Assembly: GCF_057098645.1 (NCBI RefSeq) | Contig: NZ_CM169472.1 | Length of the DNA: 64,000 nt | Reading direction: 5' to 3' (one strand) | In this document: piece by piece, positions 14,360-33,500 of the stretch | Numbering within the stretch: position 1 is the stretch's first letter | How the letters are laid out: the number at the start of each line of letters is the position of its first letter | Position numbers and translations under genes: made by a program | The notes under the pieces: model-generated | Databases searched by the model: none | Told to the model about the DNA's origin: nothing | What the model saw: only the letters and a program-made list of their open reading frames with translations

Positions 14360-14443
14360 ATATGTCCTTTTATCACTATACCAAGTCAAGTCATTGATTT
14401 AATTAAACAATTATCATTGAAAAAGTGCCAAAAATCGCAAATT

Positions 14444-14508
14444 GACTACACCATTAACTACACCGTTCGGTGCACTGTATGAAACAACGTGGAACAAATA
14501 GACACAAG
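14444..14508 (+). promoter_or_regulatory. Left-arm repeat cluster: GACTACACC, AACTACACC, then GAAACAACGTGGAACAAATAGACACAAG
   Basis: Near-identical arrangement found upstream of int at 32445-32510; candidate integrase arm-type and accessory-factor binding sites. Confidence 0.4.
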
Positions 14509-14572
14509 AAATATACAGGCGGGTAATCTTTCCAGGGGGAAGCGCACCAATTCATGAGGGGCGTTAATGTCG

Positions 14573-15025: not shown

Positions 15026-15307
15026 TTACCGCCGTAACCGCTCCGGCTTCTTCCAGTGGTACGTTATTTTCGCCTTCTCCCGATACAGTTCAACGCGGCG
15101 ATTGTAGGCCAGCATTTCCAGAACGCGGATCCGTATGTCGCGCATATCCGCATCATTAAGCTGGATACCATCACGGCGCATCACCTCAGCAACAACACGC
15201 GCATAATTTTCGGCTGTCACGCTGTCCGGCTGCGTGGTCTGTTCGTCAGCCTGCTGGCTGATTCCAGAGACGCGGCGGATTAATCGCAGTATTTCTGCTT
15301 CTGTCAT
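15026..15307 (-). CDS. Hypothetical protein (93 aa) downstream of terL
   Basis: ORF with GAGG Shine-Dalgarno 8 nt upstream, 14 nt after the terL stop. Confidence 0.55.
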   Translation of the reverse strand: MTEAEILRLIRRVSGISQQADEQTTQPDSVTAENYARVVAEVMRRDGIQLNDADMRDIRIRVLEMLAYNRRVELYREKAKITYHWKKPERLRR

Positions 15308-20464: not shown

Positions 20465-20503
20465 AAAACACTAAAGGGGCTTTTAAGCCCCTTCTGTATG
20501 CTG

Positions 20504-21661
20504 TTAATCGTCGTCTTCCGGCAGTTCCAGAATCTTGATCGCGTTCGAATCCACCACGCCACCGCCTAAATATTTTTGCGTGAAAATTTTGATGAATCCT
20601 GGTTCTGTCAGGTTGTCCGGTCTGGTGCGAACACCTGTTTCGTGATCAACAATGTAGTAACCGCGTTTGAAGTCACCCAGGGCAATAACGTTATCAGGCA
20701 TAAACTCCAGATATTCGACCGGAAGGCCCAGCAACGTATCAGGATCACCCGCCTGTAAACGGTCGCGCCAGATATAATCACCGTTCGCGTTCTTCACCTT
20801 CTGAAGTTTTGCCGCCGTCGTGGAGTTAACCACCCAGACCGCGTTTTTGCGGTATTTTTTACGTAATGCAAATTTCAGGTCGATCAGCGGGTCCGCAGAT
20901 GTCCACGCCAGAGATTCGGAAGGTTTAATTACCTGCAACGTACCAAAATCACGCTCTTTGTCGTTCTTCTCTGCACGGGGTACGGATAAAAAACCTTTTG
21001 CTTTTTTGTCACCGTCGCCCACAACCAGATCGCTTTCTTCGGTTTCCGTGAAGGTGTCGCCAATCTCACCCGTCAGCCATGAAAGGATGTCCACATCGGA
21101 AAAATCCACGATTTCCTGTGTGGTGCGCGGGTACGCATAGACCGGATACAGCTTGATGCTCACCTCGTTAATCTGCGGGGTGCTGGTCTGTTCGCGTGCC
21201 TTACCCTCTTCACCGTGGTTAACGGTCGCACCGCCAGCGGAAACAAGCTGCTTAAACTCGTTGCTGCTGATTTTCTTCACGGTACAGATGCGGCGCATGG
21301 TGGATTCATCCGCCAGCATTCGCATGATTTCGGTGTTCAGTTCAGGGATAACGGTATAACCACCATCAGCGGGAACGCCTGTACTTAATGCGCGGGTTTC
21401 ACCTGTCAGAATGTAGTTGCGGAGTTCTGCGGGGTCAGTGGTCTGACTGCTTTTACCTGGCTTGCTGCGCTCTTCGTCTGCAATGGCTTCAAGGCGGGAA
21501 ATGTCTTTATCGAGGGATTCAGCTTTAGCGCGTAATTCGTCAAATTTTGCGCCCTCTGCATCGTTAAGGCTGCGGTTTTCTTTTTCCGCGTTCTCCAGCA
21601 TGTCGCGCATCTGATTTTTAATGGCGGTTTTCTGCTGGCGTAATTCGATTATTCTCGGCAT
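20504..21661 (-). CDS. Major capsid protein, HK97 fold, with N-terminal coiled-coil scaffolding (delta) domain
   Basis: Start taken at MPRIIELRQQ (ATG 21661) because the upstream codons of the 21706 ORF form a terminator hairpin; coiled-coil N-terminus then MCP-like body. Confidence 0.85.
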   Translation of the reverse strand: MPRIIELRQQKTAIKNQMRDMLENAEKENRSLNDAEGAKFDELRAKAESLDKDISRLEAIADEERSKPGKSSQTTDPAELRNYILTGETRALSTGVPADGGYTVIPELNTEIMRMLADESTMRRICTVKKISSNEFKQLVSAGGATVNHGEEGKAREQTSTPQINEVSIKLYPVYAYPRTTQEIVDFSDVDILSWLTGEIGDTFTETEESDLVVGDGDKKAKGFLSVPRAEKNDKERDFGTLQVIKPSESLAWTSADPLIDLKFALRKKYRKNAVWVVNSTTAAKLQKVKNANGDYIWRDRLQAGDPDTLLGLPVEYLEFMPDNVIALGDFKRGYYIVDHETGVRTRPDNLTEPGFIKIFTQKYLGGGVVDSNAIKILELPEDDD

Positions 21662-21699
21662 AAAAAAAAGTCCTGGGGTTAAGTAAGGAACTCCAGGAC
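21662..21699 (-). terminator. Intrinsic terminator immediately upstream of the capsid start codon
   Basis: Minus-strand RNA: GUCCUGG(AGUU)...(AACC)CCAGGAC stem followed by U8 and then AUG. Confidence 0.55.
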
Positions 21700-21751
21700 G
21701 CGGCAAACACTCAACCGTTTTTCATAAGGAAATCAGTAATCGCACCGATCG

Positions 21752-21801
21752 TTTTCCCGCCTGGTAATGAATATTGGCGAGCACATTAACAGGCGGGAAA
21801 A
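21752..21801 (-). promoter_or_regulatory. Long perfect hairpin in the capsid-operon leader (12-bp stem TTTTCCCGCCTG/CAGGCGGGAAAA, 26-nt loop)
   Basis: Inverted repeat read directly from the sequence. Confidence 0.45.
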
Positions 21802-21876
21802 TGGCCCCAGCGTCCTGGCACCACGGGCGAGAATAATCATGATTCAGTTCGGGTAAAATATGCCGATCCACTCAGT

Positions 21877-21906
21877 GAACAACGTGGAACAACCACGAAC
21901 AAATAA
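21877..21906 (+). promoter_or_regulatory. Third copy of the AACAACGTGGAACAA-N4-GAACAA motif, in the capsid-operon leader
   Basis: Same motif as at both island ends (14481-14508, 32483-32510). Confidence 0.35.
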
Positions 21907-21920
21907 TTTACAAAACATGA

Positions 21921-21943
21921 CAAAAAGCCGGATTGCTCCGGCT
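21921..21943 (-). terminator. Intrinsic terminator after the PerC-like gene
   Basis: Minus-strand AGCCGGA-GCAA-TCCGGCU hairpin followed by UUUUU. Confidence 0.5.
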
Positions 21944-21949
21944 GTGTGA

Positions 21950-22222
21950 TTATCTGTCCTGGTAATTTCGCCATATTTCATCACCAGCACCATCCATACC
22001 CATTTCGGCATAAGTGCGATCGACCGCCTTTTTCAGGTCTCCGTAATTATCCGGCGGCTCCGGTGGCCTCTGTGCCTTCCTGGAACATTCCAGCCGTCGC
22101 ATCGTGATATGATGCCGTTCCTTGTCTGTCTCCACCAGCTGCATGACTTCACCCCATCGCGCCGCCGCCCTCCGGTAAAAGCCTTTCGCCTCCAGTTCCT
22201 CCGCTATGCGGTCATGTACCAT
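21950..22222 (-). CDS. Small regulator, possibly PerC-family (90 aa from MVHDRIAEEL)
   Basis: ATG 22222 with GGGGGTGA Shine-Dalgarno, 11 nt after the ssb stop; FYRRAAARW motif reminiscent of PerC-like activators; family assignment is tentative. Confidence 0.4.
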   Translation of the reverse strand: MVHDRIAEELEAKGFYRRAAARWGEVMQLVETDKERHHITMRRLECSRKAQRPPEPPDNYGDLKKAVDRTYAEMGMDGAGDEIWRNYQDR

Positions 22223-24492: not shown

Positions 24493-24614
24493 TTCTTGCC
24501 CCTGAATCCGTTAACTGCGTATTCCGCTCTATTCGATCACGGATTGGCATCGAAGTCCGATCAGCGATTCGCATCCATTCGATCAACCGGGAACTTAACT
24601 TTTTCTACCGCTTT

Positions 24615-26952: not shown

Positions 26953-27137
26953 TGACGTCTCCACTGGTTTAAACACGGCAATGGAGACTGTGGTGAAAAG
27001 AGTTAATTCCCGGAGTGACTGGCAGGATGCCAATCAATGATCGGAAGCATGCCAAATCGTGATCGATTGTGATGCCAAACTGTGATCGGAGATGGATGCC
27101 AAATCATGATCGATTCGAATGCCAAACTGCGATCGAT

Positions 27138-27929: not shown

Positions 27930-28129
27930 GGGTGTTAGCCAGCCAGACCCGGCATGATTACTGCCCCCAGTCGTCCATGATCCGGGGGGTGATGTCACCG
28001 GGTCTGGTGGGGCGCTGGTAACCGCTAATAGGGGTCAGGTCAGGCACTTTTGCCGGGACCGTCTGTAACGTGGATGCCGGTACCTGCTCCCCGTGGTTAT
28101 CTGGTTAACCCATATACAAGGGAGACAGA
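27930..28129 (+). ncRNA. Candidate IS110-type bridge (guide) RNA in the 5-prime non-coding end
   Basis: Structured GC-rich non-coding flank upstream of the recombinase, where IS110-group elements encode their bridge RNA; not verified by folding. Confidence 0.25.
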
Positions 28130-29326
28130 ATGACCGAATCCAGCGATTACGAATCCGTCCAGGTCTTTATCGGCGTTGATGTCGGTAAAGATACGCATCA
28201 CGCTGTAGCCATTAATCGTTCAGGTAAACGCCTGTTCGATAAAGCATTACCCAACGACGAAAACAAACTCAGGTCGCTAATATCTGACCTGAAACAACAT
28301 GGTCAGATACTGCTGGTTGTTGATCAGCCAGCTACCATCGGTGCGTTACCTGTCGCCGTTGCCCGCTCAGAAGGAGTCCTTGTCGGATACCTCCCTGGAC
28401 TGGCCATGCGCCGCATAGCCGACTTACACGCCGGTGAAGCTAAAACTGATGCTCGTGACGCTGCCATCATTGCCGAAGCTGCCCGTACCCTGCCTCACGC
28501 GCTACGCACGCTGAAACTGGCTGACGAGCAAATCGCCGAACTCTCCATGCTCTGCGGCTTCGATGATGATCTTGCCGCACAGACAACGCAGGCCAGCAAC
28601 CGTATCCGCGGCCTTCTGACCCAGATACATCCGGCACTGGAGCGCGTTCTCGGTCCGAGACTTGATCACCCGGCGGTACTCGATCTTCTCCAGCGATATC
28701 CCTCACCAGAAAAACTCGCTTCGCTGGGTGAGAAGAAGCTGGCAGCCCAGCTCTGCAAACTTGCGCCTCGTCTGGGTAAACGCCTTGCAGCAGACATAGC
28801 TCAGGCACTGGCCGAACAAACCGTCGTCGTTCCCGGCACGAATGCCGCTGCCGTAGTACTGCCACGTCTGGCACTCCAGCTCATCACGCTGCGTAAGCAA
28901 AGAGACGAGGTGGTGCTTGAGGTAGAACAGCGAGTTCTTGCTCACCCTCTTTACCCGGTCCTGACCAGTATGCCCGGAGTCGGTGTCAGGACCGCAGCCA
29001 GACTCCTCACCGAGGTCGCCTGCCGCGCCTTCGCCTCTGCCGCACATCTCGCTGCTTATGCTGGCCTTGCGCCGGTAACTCGGCGATCCGGCTCGTCAAT
29101 ACGCGGTGAGCATCCCTCGCGACGGGGTAATAAAGCTCTCAAACGGGCGTTGTTCCTGTCGGCCTTCGCCGCGCTCAGGGATCCGCTCTCCAGGGCTTAC
29201 TACACCCGCAAAATGAGTCAGGGAAAACGACACAATCAGGCGCTTATCGCCCTGGCGAGACGACGCTGCGACGTTCTGTTCGCCATGATGCGCGACGGGA
29301 CTTTTTATACCCCGCAGGCGTCATAA
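28130..29326 (+). CDS. IS110-family transposase/recombinase (398 aa)
   Basis: N-terminal IGVDVGKDTHHAVAIN (RuvC-like DEDD) motif and C-terminal serine-containing domain. Confidence 0.85.
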   Translation: MTESSDYESVQVFIGVDVGKDTHHAVAINRSGKRLFDKALPNDENKLRSLISDLKQHGQILLVVDQPATIGALPVAVARSEGVLVGYLPGLAMRRIADLHAGEAKTDARDAAIIAEAARTLPHALRTLKLADEQIAELSMLCGFDDDLAAQTTQASNRIRGLLTQIHPALERVLGPRLDHPAVLDLLQRYPSPEKLASLGEKKLAAQLCKLAPRLGKRLAADIAQALAEQTVVVPGTNAAAVVLPRLALQLITLRKQRDEVVLEVEQRVLAHPLYPVLTSMPGVGVRTAARLLTEVACRAFASAAHLAAYAGLAPVTRRSGSSIRGEHPSRRGNKALKRALFLSAFAALRDPLSRAYYTRKMSQGKRHNQALIALARRRCDVLFAMMRDGTFYTPQAS

Positions 29327-29339
29327 CATGCTTGACAAC

Positions 29340-29561
29340 TTAATAGGGGCACCCCCCATTTTCACAATCAGCAATAAGAATATTTTTAGCGTCATTCAGC
29401 GACCGCGTGGCGGTGTATCGGATACATTCCAGGGCGAACTGTGTCCGGTCTTTCTGTTCTTCTCCCTGCGCAAGCTCTGCAGTGCATTCAATATCGATAA
29501 GCGCGTGCATCAGCGTAGTGAGCGCGGCGGCTGCTGCGTCCGGTGTGGTTTTATTGCACAT
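29340..29561 (-). CDS. Hypothetical Cys-containing protein (73 aa, MCNKTTPDAAAAALTTLMHALIDIECTAEL...)
   Basis: AGGAGG Shine-Dalgarno 8 nt upstream; ATG overlaps the end of the preceding gene by 11 bp; stop is 14 nt from the IS110 transposase stop. Confidence 0.5.
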   Translation of the reverse strand: MCNKTTPDAAAAALTTLMHALIDIECTAELAQGEEQKDRTQFALECIRYTATRSLNDAKNILIADCENGGCPY

Positions 29562-30451: not shown

Positions 30452-30479
30452 GCGGCTCCATTTCGGGGCCGCTTTTTTT
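30452..30479 (+). terminator. Intrinsic terminator of the plus-strand RHH cassette
   Basis: GCGGCUCC-AUUUC-GGGGCCGC hairpin followed by UUUUUUU. Confidence 0.6.
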
Positions 30480-30625
30480 ATGCCTGAAAAACCCCAATTT
30501 TGTGGTTTTCCAGTCTCACCAGGGCGAACGAATCCCCGCCCACGTTCTGGCGTATATTCAATCTTCATGGTTATAGCTCTGTGTTCAGATGATTGATGTG
30601 TGGCGGCTGTGTGCCGCCAGCGTGA

Positions 30626-30814
30626 TTAATGAACTGCCTTGCAGCTATCCTTCCAGGCCAGAACCTCGGATAAAGACCAGCCAACGGAACGACCGCCAAG
30701 TTTACGACGTGATGGGAATTGTCCGGCCTTTTCCAGGCGGTAGCGACACGTACGGCTAAGGCCGGTTAGTTTTTCGCATTCTTTTTCACGTATAAACCGA
30801 TCAGTGCTTAACAC
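30626..30814 (-). CDS. alpA: AlpA-family phage regulatory protein (62 aa)
   Basis: LTGLSRTCRYRLEKAGQFPSRRKLGGRSVGWSLSEVLAW matches the AlpA/Xis-like HTH family pattern. Confidence 0.8.
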   Translation of the reverse strand: MLSTDRFIREKECEKLTGLSRTCRYRLEKAGQFPSRRKLGGRSVGWSLSEVLAWKDSCKAVH

Positions 30815-31188
30815 TATTGCCCCCTTTCGTTTCTTAAAGAGTTATTTCGTGTTCTATTGCGTTGAGATGTGTCTGATTGTGTCAGGATGATTCAGAGTTG
30901 GCAAATGTTGAGGCCGTATGGTTTACAGAAAGAGGAATAATCAGGATAAAATCATTTAAATTCATGTTAATACAAAGACATAAAATATTGTTTCATGCCT
31001 TTTTTCTCGCTATTTAAAGAGTGATTCGCTAGTGTATAAAAAACCAGTGACACATTAAAAATCAGCTACTTATAAATCTGTACACTTTTTCGCCTCTTGT
31101 TCGTAGTTGTTCCGCATTGTTGCTCATTGTTGCACGTTGTATCTGTTCGCATATCCAGTATGCGCATACTGAAAAAATACGAAAAAAA

Positions 31189-32406: not shown

Positions 32407-32444
32407 TGCTCTGCTCACGTTTTACCCCCTCTTTACGAAAAAGT

Positions 32445-32510
32445 GACTACACCAGTGACTACACCGATCGTTGCACAAAGGGCTACAACGTGAAACAAGC
32501 TGGAACAAGG
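32445..32510 (+). promoter_or_regulatory. Right-arm repeat cluster: GACTACACC x2 then ACAACGTGAAACAAGCTGGAACAAGG
   Basis: Between the int start and the chromosomal junction; mirrors the left-arm cluster. Confidence 0.4.
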
Positions 32511-32593
32511 AAAATCACAAATCTGTTGATAATCAAAAACATAATGCACAGCCTGAAACATTATGAAACAGCAAAAAACACTAAATGATAAAA

Positions 32594-33500
32594 TGCTGTT
32601 ATTCTTAACCCGCTGGTGCAACACATGGTCCGCTGGCGAGTGCCGCGTGTACTGGCGGTGTCGATTTTGATGACCATCATCGTGATGGCTATGGTGTTGC
32701 TGTTAGCTTATCTGGGTTCCGCGCTCAACGAGTTGACGCGGACGTTACCGCAATATCGCAACTCTATTATGACGCCGCTGCAAGCTCTTGAGCCGTTGTT
32801 GCAACGCGTAGGGATTGACGTCTCAGTTGACCAGCTGGCGCATTACATTGATCCGAACGCGGCGATGACGTTGCTCACCAACTTATTGACGCAGTTATCT
32901 AATGCCATGTCATCAATATTTTTATTGCTGCTGACGGTGCTGTTTATGCTGCTCGAAGTGCCACAATTGCCCGGAAAATTTCAGCAAATGATGGCGCGTC
33001 CGGTTGAAGGGATGGCGGCGATTCAGCGTGCGATTGACAGTGTGTCTCATTATCTGGTGCTGAAAACAGCCATCAGCATCATCACCGGCCTGGTCGCATG
33101 GGCGATGCTCGCCGCCCTCGATGTTCGCTTCGCTTTTGTCTGGGGATTGCTGGCCTTTGCGCTTAATTACATCCCTAATATTGGTTCAGTTCTCGCGGCA
33201 ATCCCCCCTATCGCTCAGGTACTGGTGTTTAATGGCTTCTACGAAGCGTTGCTGGTGCTGGCGGGATATCTGCTGATTAATCTGGTCTTCGGCAATATTC
33301 TGGAGCCGCGCATCATGGGACGTGGGCTGGGGCTTTCGACATTGGTGGTATTTTTGTCGTTGATTTTTTGGGGATGGTTGTTAGGACCGGTGGGTATGCT
33401 GCTTTCCGTGCCGTTGACAATTATTGTCAAAATTGCGCTTGAACAAACAGCGGGAGGTCAAAGCATCGCCGTTCTGTTAAGCGATCTCAATAAAGAGTGA
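32594..33500 (+). pseudogene. tqsA: tqsA (ydgG) AI-2 exporter, 5-prime truncated at the island junction (lacks about 45 codons)
   Basis: K-12-like TqsA sequence begins abruptly at ...[16 protein letters not shown]; an in-frame TAA sits at 32589-32591 just inside the island. Confidence 0.8.

Follow-up and report, generated by a model that had tools for sequence, protein, structure and literature searches.

A structured capsid leader RNA with a predicted terminator abutting the start codon in a capsid-forming phage satellite

Introduction

In the attenuators of the trp and pyrBI operons, an upstream RNA segment mimics the 3′ arm of a terminator, with which it vies for the 5′ arm: by default transcription ends shortly ahead of the first gene, and the decision is made while the RNA is being synthesised. 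In dual-acting riboswitch platforms, one hairpin governs both termination and ribosome access, and relatives can combine the same aptamer-like upstream part with an output of either kind, translational or transcriptional. By analogy, terminator/antiterminator attenuators and riboswitch-type platforms whose terminator stem hides the Shine-Dalgarno sequence (SD) appear to be the closest functional counterparts of the locus described here: the region ahead of the minus-strand capsid gene (positions 21,662 to 21,949) in a 64,000-nt stretch of contig NZ_CM169472.1, RefSeq assembly GCF_057098645.1 (hereafter the window). The gene belongs to a capsid-forming phage-inducible chromosomal island (cf-PICI) of the EcCIEDL933 (CP-933C/OI-51) type, and the region is, we infer, the late promoter and the roughly 163-nt 5′ leader of its capsid and packaging operon. 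Unlike the trp and pyrBI leaders, the cf-PICI leader has neither a leader peptide nor a recognised sensing ribosome; its competing segment lies in a 5′-terminal hairpin about 110 nt away and would approach via a clamp hairpin; and its terminator holds the SD and abuts the AUG. Unlike the riboswitch platforms, it has no recognised ligand or aptamer, is absent from Rfam 15 and stands before a capsid gene on a phage satellite.

The original prediction for this region, made from the letters alone, likened it to late-operon control in lambdoid phages. The lambda PR′-tR′/Q system does share with it a late structural operon behind a terminator, an expected short leader transcript and the need for read-through. 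However, the island has no Q gene (no Q-family antiterminator turned up when its proteins were scanned against Pfam, or in the PGAP annotation of three relatives), and neither a Q-binding nor a pause element could be recognised. The cf-PICI terminator also abuts the start codon directly, where that of lambda is far upstream, and an intrinsic antiterminator pairing is present. The put sites of phage HK022 offer a second parallel: two adjacent stem-loops right after the promoter of a terminator-containing operon, comparable to the first two leader hairpins (HP1 and HP2), which lie 0-3 nt apart. HP1, unlike put, is a simple 24-nt hairpin, and the evidence favours pairing with the terminator over modification of the polymerase. 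A put-like RNA was rejected because local alignment to putL and putR stayed at shuffle level, whereas putL against putR scores 35; likewise, the covariance model of the leader family described below (R1) found no match in the HK022 locus (L015). Finally, the AlpA of P. aeruginosa shares its name with the AlpA of PICIs and also controls genes with a terminator immediately upstream of the first open reading frame (ORF), but it has a Q21 fold with a C-terminal helix-turn-helix (DNA-contact residues 128-142). A role of PICI AlpA as a Q-like antiterminator homologous to PA0907 was rejected: the 62-residue PICI protein matches PF05930 and is unrelated, and a PDB search with it returned only 8c3t, an unrelated small AlpA-family structure. 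With no Q-type antiterminator, no resemblance to put and an AlpA that shares a name only, lambdoid control is not supported in the form first proposed; the parts of the original interpretation that are supported are the anatomy of an intrinsic terminator and the need for read-through.

cf-PICIs are widespread and cross genera by making their own small capsids, and the prototype is the O157 copy, EcCIEDL933. The cf-PICI papers of 2022 and 2025 do not address the timing of packaging-operon expression: the word "promoter" occurs in neither, "terminator" is absent from the 2022 preprint and "transcription" from the 2025 paper. No description of a control element in the capsid leader was found in the literature or RNA database searched. 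The leader is best filed as a previously uncatalogued family of cis-regulatory leader RNAs in cf-PICIs whose output, in the EcCIEDL933 lineage of E. coli, is of the terminator type. If the leader does gate transcription and translation, it would be a missing checkpoint between AlpA-dependent induction and capsid production, and it offers a compact, testable model: an attenuator with its terminator fused to the start codon. Three points go beyond the original prediction, namely the SD inside the hairpin, a homologous hairpin across the family that sequesters the ribosome-binding site (RBS), and an antiterminator pairing in cis.

A terminator-like hairpin at the capsid start codon

The capsid gene is preceded without a gap by a hairpin and eight U residues (coordinates in Table 1), exactly where the original prediction had placed a stem-loop and U8 directly before the ATG. 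On the minus strand, GUCCUGG-A-GUU, the loop CCUUACUU and AAC-C-CCAGGAC form a stem of 7 bp, a 1x1 A·C mismatch, 3 bp and an 8-nt loop. The 7-bp lower stem, with 5 GC pairs, closes directly onto the U8 tract, and the ATG (21661-21659) comes next. PGAP uses the same capsid start in near-identical genomes, and it aligns with Met1 of the family. Folding, which had been proposed as a check, bears the hairpin out: it appears in both the minimum free energy (MFE) and the centroid fold and has an energy of -12.7 kcal/mol when folded by itself, against -12.0 and -13.8 kcal/mol for the two neighbouring terminator-like hairpins (after perC and after the capsid gene). For the 321-nt region as a whole, folding gives z = -5.3, a stability that 0 of 100 shuffles reach. 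The final hairpin and its U8 tract thus have the complete anatomy of an intrinsic terminator, and termination is predicted from this fold. A single strong hairpin followed by a run of at least 7 T occurs at about 3-4 sites on both strands of the window. A simple terminator scan of the window did not pick up the final hairpin, solely because of the internal mismatch. A bidirectional terminator was considered and rejected: read on the plus strand, the hairpin is preceded by an A-run and lacks a U-run behind it, which makes the terminator signal specific to the minus strand.

Two consequences follow from the position of the hairpin. First, its 3′ arm contains AGGA, the sole SD-like sequence available to the capsid gene, 9 nt ahead of the AUG; the hairpin should therefore gate translation as well, and the U8 tract doubles as SD-AUG spacer and putative terminator tail. 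Second, no promoter fits between the hairpin and the ATG, as had been noticed at the outset, and the sole promoter-like element lies upstream; RNA polymerase must therefore pass the hairpin for the capsid to be expressed, so the predicted need for read-through stands. A terminated leader RNA is plausible too, but at about 155-163 nt and not the roughly 200 nt first suggested; the full-length figure of about 163 nt assumes a start near 21824, placed there from the promoter sequence. Supplements of Hfq-CRAC (cross-linking and analysis of cDNA) data, searched by Sp7/SpLE2, locus tags and coordinates, listed no small RNA (sRNA) from the capsid-leader locus. Known O157 sRNAs were rejected as the identity of the leader: Esr41 maps to SpLE1, and the Pas sRNAs are lambdoid, not satellite.

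The 321-nt region is found in 457 of 5426 complete E. coli genomes, at full length in 359, with nearly all full-length copies 95-99% identical; it is absent from the phage collection searched. In all EcCIEDL933-type copies examined, the hairpin, a U7-8 tract and the promoter are kept. One variant (L017; L028 is alike) has UU in place of CC in the 3′ arm, which turns a G-C pair into G·U and the A·C mismatch into A-U, so that pairing is kept or improved. The stem is weakened in two copies, L026 and L016, of which L026 loses the SD too.

A conserved leader RNA family upstream of cf-PICI capsid genes

Relatives of the leader were drawn from the 5426 complete E. coli genomes (L002 and L003), from the GTDB set of one genome per species (L004 in Citrobacter, L005 in Erwinia) and from IMG/VR, where the search yielded 80 loci with capsid identities of 65-100%. 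More than 100 cf-PICIs were found to have a leader of this family ahead of their capsid gene. Its plan (shared by the IMG/VR loci other than the AT-rich lineages described below) is as follows: the box TTTGTAAAT, three repeats phased by 10 bp, a -10-like TAT[CGT]TT, 5 nt, HP1, HP2, a linker and a third hairpin, HP3. HP1 is GUGGCACUCAGACGUGAGCCGCCAC in most members and has a GACG loop. HP2 is a long hairpin beginning 0-3 nt after HP1 and followed by an unpaired C/U-rich linker, and HP3 is UGGUUUC-A-CGU ... ACG-GAAACCA, with about 5 nt left to the AUG. All three hairpins appear in each main-family leader when the leaders are folded separately.

Covariation supports this structure. R1 was built on 31 leaders and had 69 strong matches among the loci examined, giving an alignment of 66 distinct sequences in which 94.2% of cells are paired, versus 34-49% in slid controls, and 20 of 34 pairs show two-sided changes. 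In HP2 all 10 pairs have changed on both sides with 95% of cells paired, and 37 leaders contain 25 different HP2 stem sequences with many G·U pairs. Compensatory changes affect 6 of the 10 pairs of HP1; the lower stem of HP3 is invariant and therefore uninformative on covariation. The canonical 25-nt HP1 is present in more than 120 IMG/VR contigs, and every exact copy in the loci examined (118 of 118) precedes a capsid-like start within 260 nt. This signature, GTGGCACTCAGACGTGAGCCGCCAC, marks main-lineage cf-PICIs in sequence data, the window lineage having a divergent HP1. Three degenerate scans of IMG/VR for HP1 variants returned canonical HP1 and chance matches only, and a scan for HP3 variants added four leaders, all of one lineage. 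At E <= 1, Rfam 15 gave no match to the window between 12 and 32 kb or to the leaders of six related loci. A blastn search of phage genomes found no match to the window leader and, for a main-family leader, three records only, apparently cf-PICI-like entries. Resemblances to boxA (CGUCUUAAC) and ops (GGCGG) were seen by eye and discarded, as they are not conserved across lineages.

By sequence and predicted fold, the window leader is a divergent member of this HP1-HP2-linker-HP3 family. All modules are present: an HP1 with a GACG loop, an abutting HP2, a C/U linker and an SD-bearing HP3 before the capsid AUG. It counts as divergent because HP1 differs from the canonical sequence at about 10 of 24 positions and the leader scores 17.1 bits with R1 (E = 4e-4 in 3 kb), with the 3′ part (HP3) mis-aligned. 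The 12-bp perfect hairpin that had been noticed upstream of the terminator is its HP2: TTTTCCCGCCTG (21801-21790) pairs with CAGGCGGGAAAA (21763-21752) at -23.5 kcal/mol, and the stem extends to 18 nt at 94% complementarity. In 21 loci of the AT-rich lineages, the TTTGTAAAT box, the repeats and a promoter-proximal hairpin are kept; the downstream leader is shorter and lacks the canonical HP1, and R1 finds no match in these loci. Three of them (L057, L058 and L062) still have a terminal hairpin with an SD in its 3′ arm.

In the relatives, GGA of ACGGAAACC, the core of the SD, is base-paired to GGUUUC..CG within HP3, and the distance from GGA to the AUG is 9 nt, as is that from AGGA in the window. 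SD sequestration is predicted independently in every main-family leader, and since the SD core is paired in each of them, the conserved function would be the masking of the capsid RBS. A run of at least 6 T before the ATG occurs in 0 of 80 distinct main-family leaders: the U7-8 tract is confined to the EcCIEDL933 lineage and fixed there. Judged from these leaders, the U-tract is a lineage-specific elaboration of the RBS-sequestering hairpin, which by this gain acquired full intrinsic-terminator anatomy.

The leader also contains CCTTATGAAAAAC (21711-21730, minus strand), similar to the sequence around the capsid start in other cf-PICIs (CACTTCATGAAAAAAC); the start-codon columns of R1 align there. 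It opens a 4-codon mini-ORF, ATG AAA AAC GGT TGA (21725-21711), that has no SD and keeps its frame in a variant with AAG CGT. The mini-ORF may be a relic of the ancestral start, replaced by the terminator-containing segment. A leader peptide was rejected as an explanation for the leader: the frame from a 5′-terminal GUG is not conserved, the mini-ORF lacks an SD, and there is no conserved upstream ORF because HP2 lengths differ by non-multiples of 3.

A predicted pairing between HP1 and the terminator

Part of HP1 could compete for the 5′ arm of the final hairpin. In the window lineage, CCAGGAC of the HP1 segment CCAGGACGC is identical to the terminator 3′ arm, the mimicry typical of an antiterminator, and CCAGGACGC and GCGUCCUGG can form a 9-bp alternative helix that is mutually exclusive with the terminator. 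Two blocks alone are invariant in their neighbourhoods, GACG in the loop of HP1 and CGUC within the 5′ half of HP3, and they are complementary to each other. In the main family the long-range helix takes the form of 8 bp between AGACGUGA and UCACGUCU. A third version, the L083 type, seen in five leaders whose HP2s are otherwise different, pairs GACGGGA with UCCCGUC: UCCCGUC always co-occurs with GACGGGA, and where HP3 has C in place of A, HP1 has G in place of U in its 3′ arm and C in place of A in its 5′ arm. In L451, an A-to-G change in the loop is tolerated as G·U in the long-range helix. Over the alignment 81.8% of the cells of this helix are paired, versus 23-46% in slid controls, with 5 pairs changed two-sidedly; within the main family the figure is 97.3%. 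Folding of nascent RNA adds a temporal aspect: at 133-148 nt, with the 5′ arm already transcribed and the 3′ arm still to come, the MFE structure of the window leader has HP1 open and the antiterminator helix in place, with an advantage of 3-4 kcal/mol, and from about 150 nt the fold with HP1 and terminator wins, with a margin of 7.5 kcal/mol at completion. A pairing of this kind, in cis, points to attenuation and not to factor-driven processive antitermination.

The probable late promoter and its phased repeats

The promoter-like element (Table 1) is invariant in the window's lineage, its geometry (TTTAC[ATC]-16-TAT[CGT]TT) recurs in relatives with GTTC repeats, and throughout the family 5 nt separate the -10 from HP1. 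Upstream of it stand three TTGTTC repeats, the shared motif that the original prediction had placed there. The threefold TTGTTC pattern has 6 matches in the window versus 0.10 expected, and repeats of this type also occur between int and alpA, just upstream of int and at the opposite island end. Three other islands (L001, L096 and L003), each at a different chromosomal site, have repeats at the same four places.

In Gram-negative PICIs the master activator is AlpA, which also activates its own promoter (PMC6092414, PMC11773190). It is homologous to P4 Vis, an excisionase that regulates late promoters too (PMC6092414). The window shares with the P4 Vis and P2 Cox systems, in which small excisionase-type proteins act on phased repeats at att sites and late promoters, the presence of phased direct repeats near the island ends and the late promoter. 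It differs from them in that the binding of AlpA to TTGTTC is inferred and the layout is not common to all cf-PICI lineages. On the arrangement of these motifs, the late promoter is probably activated by AlpA via the phased TTGTTC repeats, and it is reasonable to regard the repeats as candidate AlpA (Vis-like) sites that would link excision, autoregulation and late transcription. Other cf-PICI lineages have phased repeats of different sequence. Late-promoter repeats recur elsewhere in the same island in the EcCIEDL933 type and L003 but not generally in the IMG/VR loci, which limits the case for AlpA sites.

In most cf-PICIs that are not of E. coli type (L004, L005, L034-L095), the interval from the phased repeats to the -10 holds a GC hairpin with a T-run (e.g. 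CCCCUGUCUCUGACGGGGGUUUUCUUU) that overlaps the -35 position; in its place the window lineage has the -35 TTTACC, and its terminators are elsewhere. A sigma-54 promoter was also considered: HP1 of the main family contains TGGCAC, a -24 motif (L074, 2859-2883), but has no GC at the -12 spacing, and the resemblance seems coincidental.

A possible mechanism and its alternatives

Taking the folds and the conservation together, we favour, with confidence evenly balanced between belief and doubt, the reading that the leader attenuates both transcription and translation and is off by default. As long as HP1 stays closed, the terminator would form and polymerase would stop in the U-tract just ahead of the capsid gene, leaving an RNA of about 155-163 nt; in transcripts that escape, the RBS would still be masked. 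If the HP1 segment instead captured the 5′ arm, the terminator would be blocked and the SD freed, so that operon transcription and capsid translation would be switched on together. The choice of fold would be kinetic, made during transcription. Our guess at the trigger is a factor that is produced once the satellite is induced and opens or holds HP1, or else a change in polymerase speed or pausing. HP2 could be a sequence-independent clamp that draws the HP1 segment and the 5′ arm together, and a clamp would explain why only the pairing of HP2 is conserved. The sequence of HP1 is near-invariant beyond what its pairing needs, which suggests a conserved trans-acting partner. In relatives without a U-tract, the same switch could operate via RBS masking, and Rho polarity on an untranslated first gene would likely carry the effect to the whole operon. 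A bolder proposal, which we consider unlikely, is that HP1-HP2 form a new satellite sensor RNA that decides at the first gene on making the island's own capsids, either as an antitermination RNA that binds polymerase or a factor, put-like in function though unrelated to put, or as a receptor, similar to a riboswitch, for some product of the helper phage or the satellite. It would include, with the same low expectation, interchangeable outputs: RBS masking in most cf-PICIs and a start-codon-fused terminator in the EcCIEDL933 lineage.

Several observations weigh against the attenuator as we favour it. An 8-nt loop and an internal mismatch are not ideal for an efficient terminator. The homologous hairpin has no U-tract in more than 80 relatives, so the ancestral function would be translational and the U-run could be a mere A/U-rich spacer. 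Support for the antiterminator helix is modest. Most of its pairs never vary; its covariation comes from about two independent lineages and one wobble, and its duplex energies beat those of mononucleotide shuffles at p ~0.03-0.04 per lineage only. At equilibrium the off state is the more stable one, with a margin of 7.5 kcal/mol for the window leader and 3-12 kcal/mol for relatives, and in the main family the alternative fold is never the MFE structure at intermediate lengths. A search for what might sense conditions and choose the fold found no conserved upstream ORF, a mini-ORF that has no SD and no protein partner. At the promoter, the link between TTGTTC and AlpA is one of position, and L002-type islands have TTGTTC repeats at the late promoter only, with none near alpA.

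The main rival is that the hairpin acts only as a translational operator, the U8 tract being an A/U-rich SD-AUG spacer or an S1-binding enhancer with little termination. This account, which we rate as rather unlikely, draws on the homologous hairpin that sequesters the SD without a U-tract in more than 80 distinct leaders, on the preserved 9-nt GGA-AUG spacing and on the loop and mismatch just mentioned, which are sub-optimal for termination. Against it, a 7-bp stem with 5 GC pairs closing onto eight unbroken U residues is a canonical termination signal, and its stability (-12.7 kcal/mol) matches that of two neighbouring terminators that look bona fide (-12.0 and -13.8 kcal/mol). The U7-8 tract is also fixed in the lineage, and the lineage-specific antiterminator complement spans the whole lower stem.

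The default-off switch could also be replaced by a constitutive attenuator or insulator that just keeps basal and read-through transcription of the packaging genes low, with induced expression coming from strong AlpA-activated initiation and leaky read-through and no RNA switch at all. Many relatives do have a terminator-like GC hairpin and T-run just upstream of the -10, a hint that insulation is generally needed; behind the capsid gene, a partial terminator is found universally; and the off fold is far more stable at equilibrium. This explanation nevertheless seems improbable to us, because it leaves unexplained the near-invariance of HP1, the covarying HP2 clamp, the complementarity of HP1 and HP3 across three sequence versions, and the buried SD.

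Processive antitermination of the lambdoid kind, in which a Q-like or helper protein or a put-like HP1-HP2 would modify RNA polymerase so that it ignores the final hairpin (T1) and the hairpin after the capsid gene (T2), strikes us as quite improbable. The two adjacent stem-loops from the inferred +1, as in putL, are compatible with it, as are the operon's terminator-like sites (at least two, T1 and T2) and a conservation of HP1 that exceeds its pairing needs and would suit a conserved partner such as RNA polymerase. But neither the island proteins nor the annotated relatives include a Q, N or other antiterminator family, the similarity to putL and putR is no better than that of shuffles and R1 has no match in HK022, P. 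aeruginosa AlpA (Q21-like) is not homologous to the 62-residue PICI AlpA, and the leaders of relatives contain no terminator. Most improbable of all is that the complementary blocks are half-sites of a DNA operator (AGACGTGA / TCACGTCT; in the window CCAGGACGC / GCGTCCTGG) for a dimeric or looping repressor at +10 and +125, with the hairpins as by-products: HP1 is an imperfect palindrome at the transcription start and two sites co-varying with one protein would imitate RNA covariation, but the sequence of HP2 has changed wholly while its pairing, with many G·U, was kept (sensible in RNA only), the long-range pairing of L451 survives via G·U only, and HP1 has asymmetric bulges.

Table 1. Features of the capsid leader and related elements in the window
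Feature	Position	Strand	Basis
HK97-type major capsid gene, first in packaging operon	20504..21661	-	Pfam PF05065, E = 1.6e-61
U8 tract	21662..21669	-	U7 or U8 in all lineage members
Shine-Dalgarno sequence AGGA	21671..21674	-	read from sequence; spacing as in relatives, where GGAAACC is HP3-paired
Predicted terminator / RBS-sequestering hairpin T1 (positional homologue of HP3)	21670..21699	-	folding, -12.7 kcal/mol
Terminator 5′ arm GCGUCCUGG, partner of CCAGGACGC, holds family-invariant CGUC	21693..21701	-
HP2b, small extra hairpin peculiar to the window lineage	21731..21750	-	MFE fold
HP2, long hairpin	21752..21801	-	fold, -23.5 kcal/mol; covariation
HP1, 5′-terminal hairpin, GACG loop (GUGGUGCCAGGACGCUGGGGCCAU)	21801..21824	-	MFE fold; covariation
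Candidate antiterminator segment CCAGGACGC inside HP1	21810..21818	-	9-bp complement to 21701-21693
Promoter-like element: -35 TTTACC (21857-21852), 16-bp spacer, -10 TATTCT (21835-21830)	21830..21857	-
Three TTGTTC repeats, 10-bp period	21877..21902	-	exact pattern match; candidate AlpA activator sites
TTTGTAAAT box	21906..21914	-	about 90 nt upstream of HP1, fixed distance family-wide (about 55 distinct cf-PICIs aligned)
perC transcript terminator, AGCCGGAGCAAUCCGGCU + U5	21921..21943	-	terminator scan; -12.0 kcal/mol; invariant in lineage
perC/pchE-like gene, last gene before the leader	21950..22222	-	Pfam PF06069 PerC, E = 1.7e-43
Second terminator-like hairpin T2, capsid-protease gap	20473..20494	-	terminator scan; -13.8 kcal/mol
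alpA, 62 aa, candidate activator on TTGTTC repeats	30626..30814	-	Pfam PF05930, E = 5.4e-17
TTGTTC-type phased repeats, int-alpA intergenic	31087..31132	+ (opposite orientation)	pattern search
TTGTTC-type phased repeats close to one island end, immediately upstream of int	32483..32508	-
TTGTTC-type phased repeats, opposite island end	14482..14507	-

The island and its surroundings

The cf-PICI spans about 14.4-32.5 kb of the window, with its genes on the minus strand in the order int, alpA, small ORFs, AAA_25 replication protein, SSB and PerC, followed by the packaging genes: capsid (PF05065), prohead protease, portal, head-closure/connector proteins, HNH, TerS and TerL. Pfam matches were obtained for capsid, protease, portal, HNH, TerS, TerL, PerC, SSB, AAA_25 and AlpA. 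The element thus combines int, alpA and pri/rep with its own co-oriented HK97-type capsid and packaging genes, the hallmarks of a cf-PICI, and it is syntenic with annotated islands of E. coli UCPROB-002 and O157:H7. Cryptic prophage CP-933C, O-island 51 and Sp7 are the same O157 element, whose PerC homologue is PchE (PMC3378721) and which influences virulence regulation in E. coli O157:H7 (PMC3378721). The perC-like gene of the window is annotated as a PerC family regulator in near-identical genomes.

The end regions of the island (14360-14520 and 32430-32620) share a 76-nt direct repeat with 74% identity (14439-14514 and 32440-32515) that carries ACTACACC and the TTGTTC-type repeats. On the left the island is flanked by phoQ, as in O157:H7 EcCIEDL933/CP-933C, and on the right by tqsA/pntB, as in UCPROB-002; these mixed flanks point to a rearrangement involving two cf-PICI insertion sites or to a join in the assembly. 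The early/replication region contains an IS21-type element (istA 27033-25387, istB 25613-24615, terminal inverted repeats 24534-24551 and 27026-27043) and an IS110-family transposase (28130-29326, plus strand) in an insertion at about 28000-29400. With two insertion sequences in its early region, this copy of the satellite may be defective.

Within the packaging operon, a GC-rich hairpin with a T-run follows right after the capsid stop, before the protease gene, in almost every cf-PICI examined (L001-L095). Its stem sequence is variable, and it would be an operon-internal terminator or attenuator conserved family-wide; in the window (T2) it probably sets the ratio of capsid to protease and portal. 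The last gene of the operon, after terL, is a 93-residue ORF (15026-15307, minus strand) that has no Pfam match and is kept in L001, L002, L003 and L096. On the plus strand, a strong hairpin (GCGGCUCC..GGGGCCGC) and T7 at 30452-30485 are followed at once by ATGCC, which mirrors the T8-ATGCC junction of the capsid start (inverted repeat I4, 74% complementary); this hairpin probably terminates a plus-strand YlcI/YnfO-like gene.

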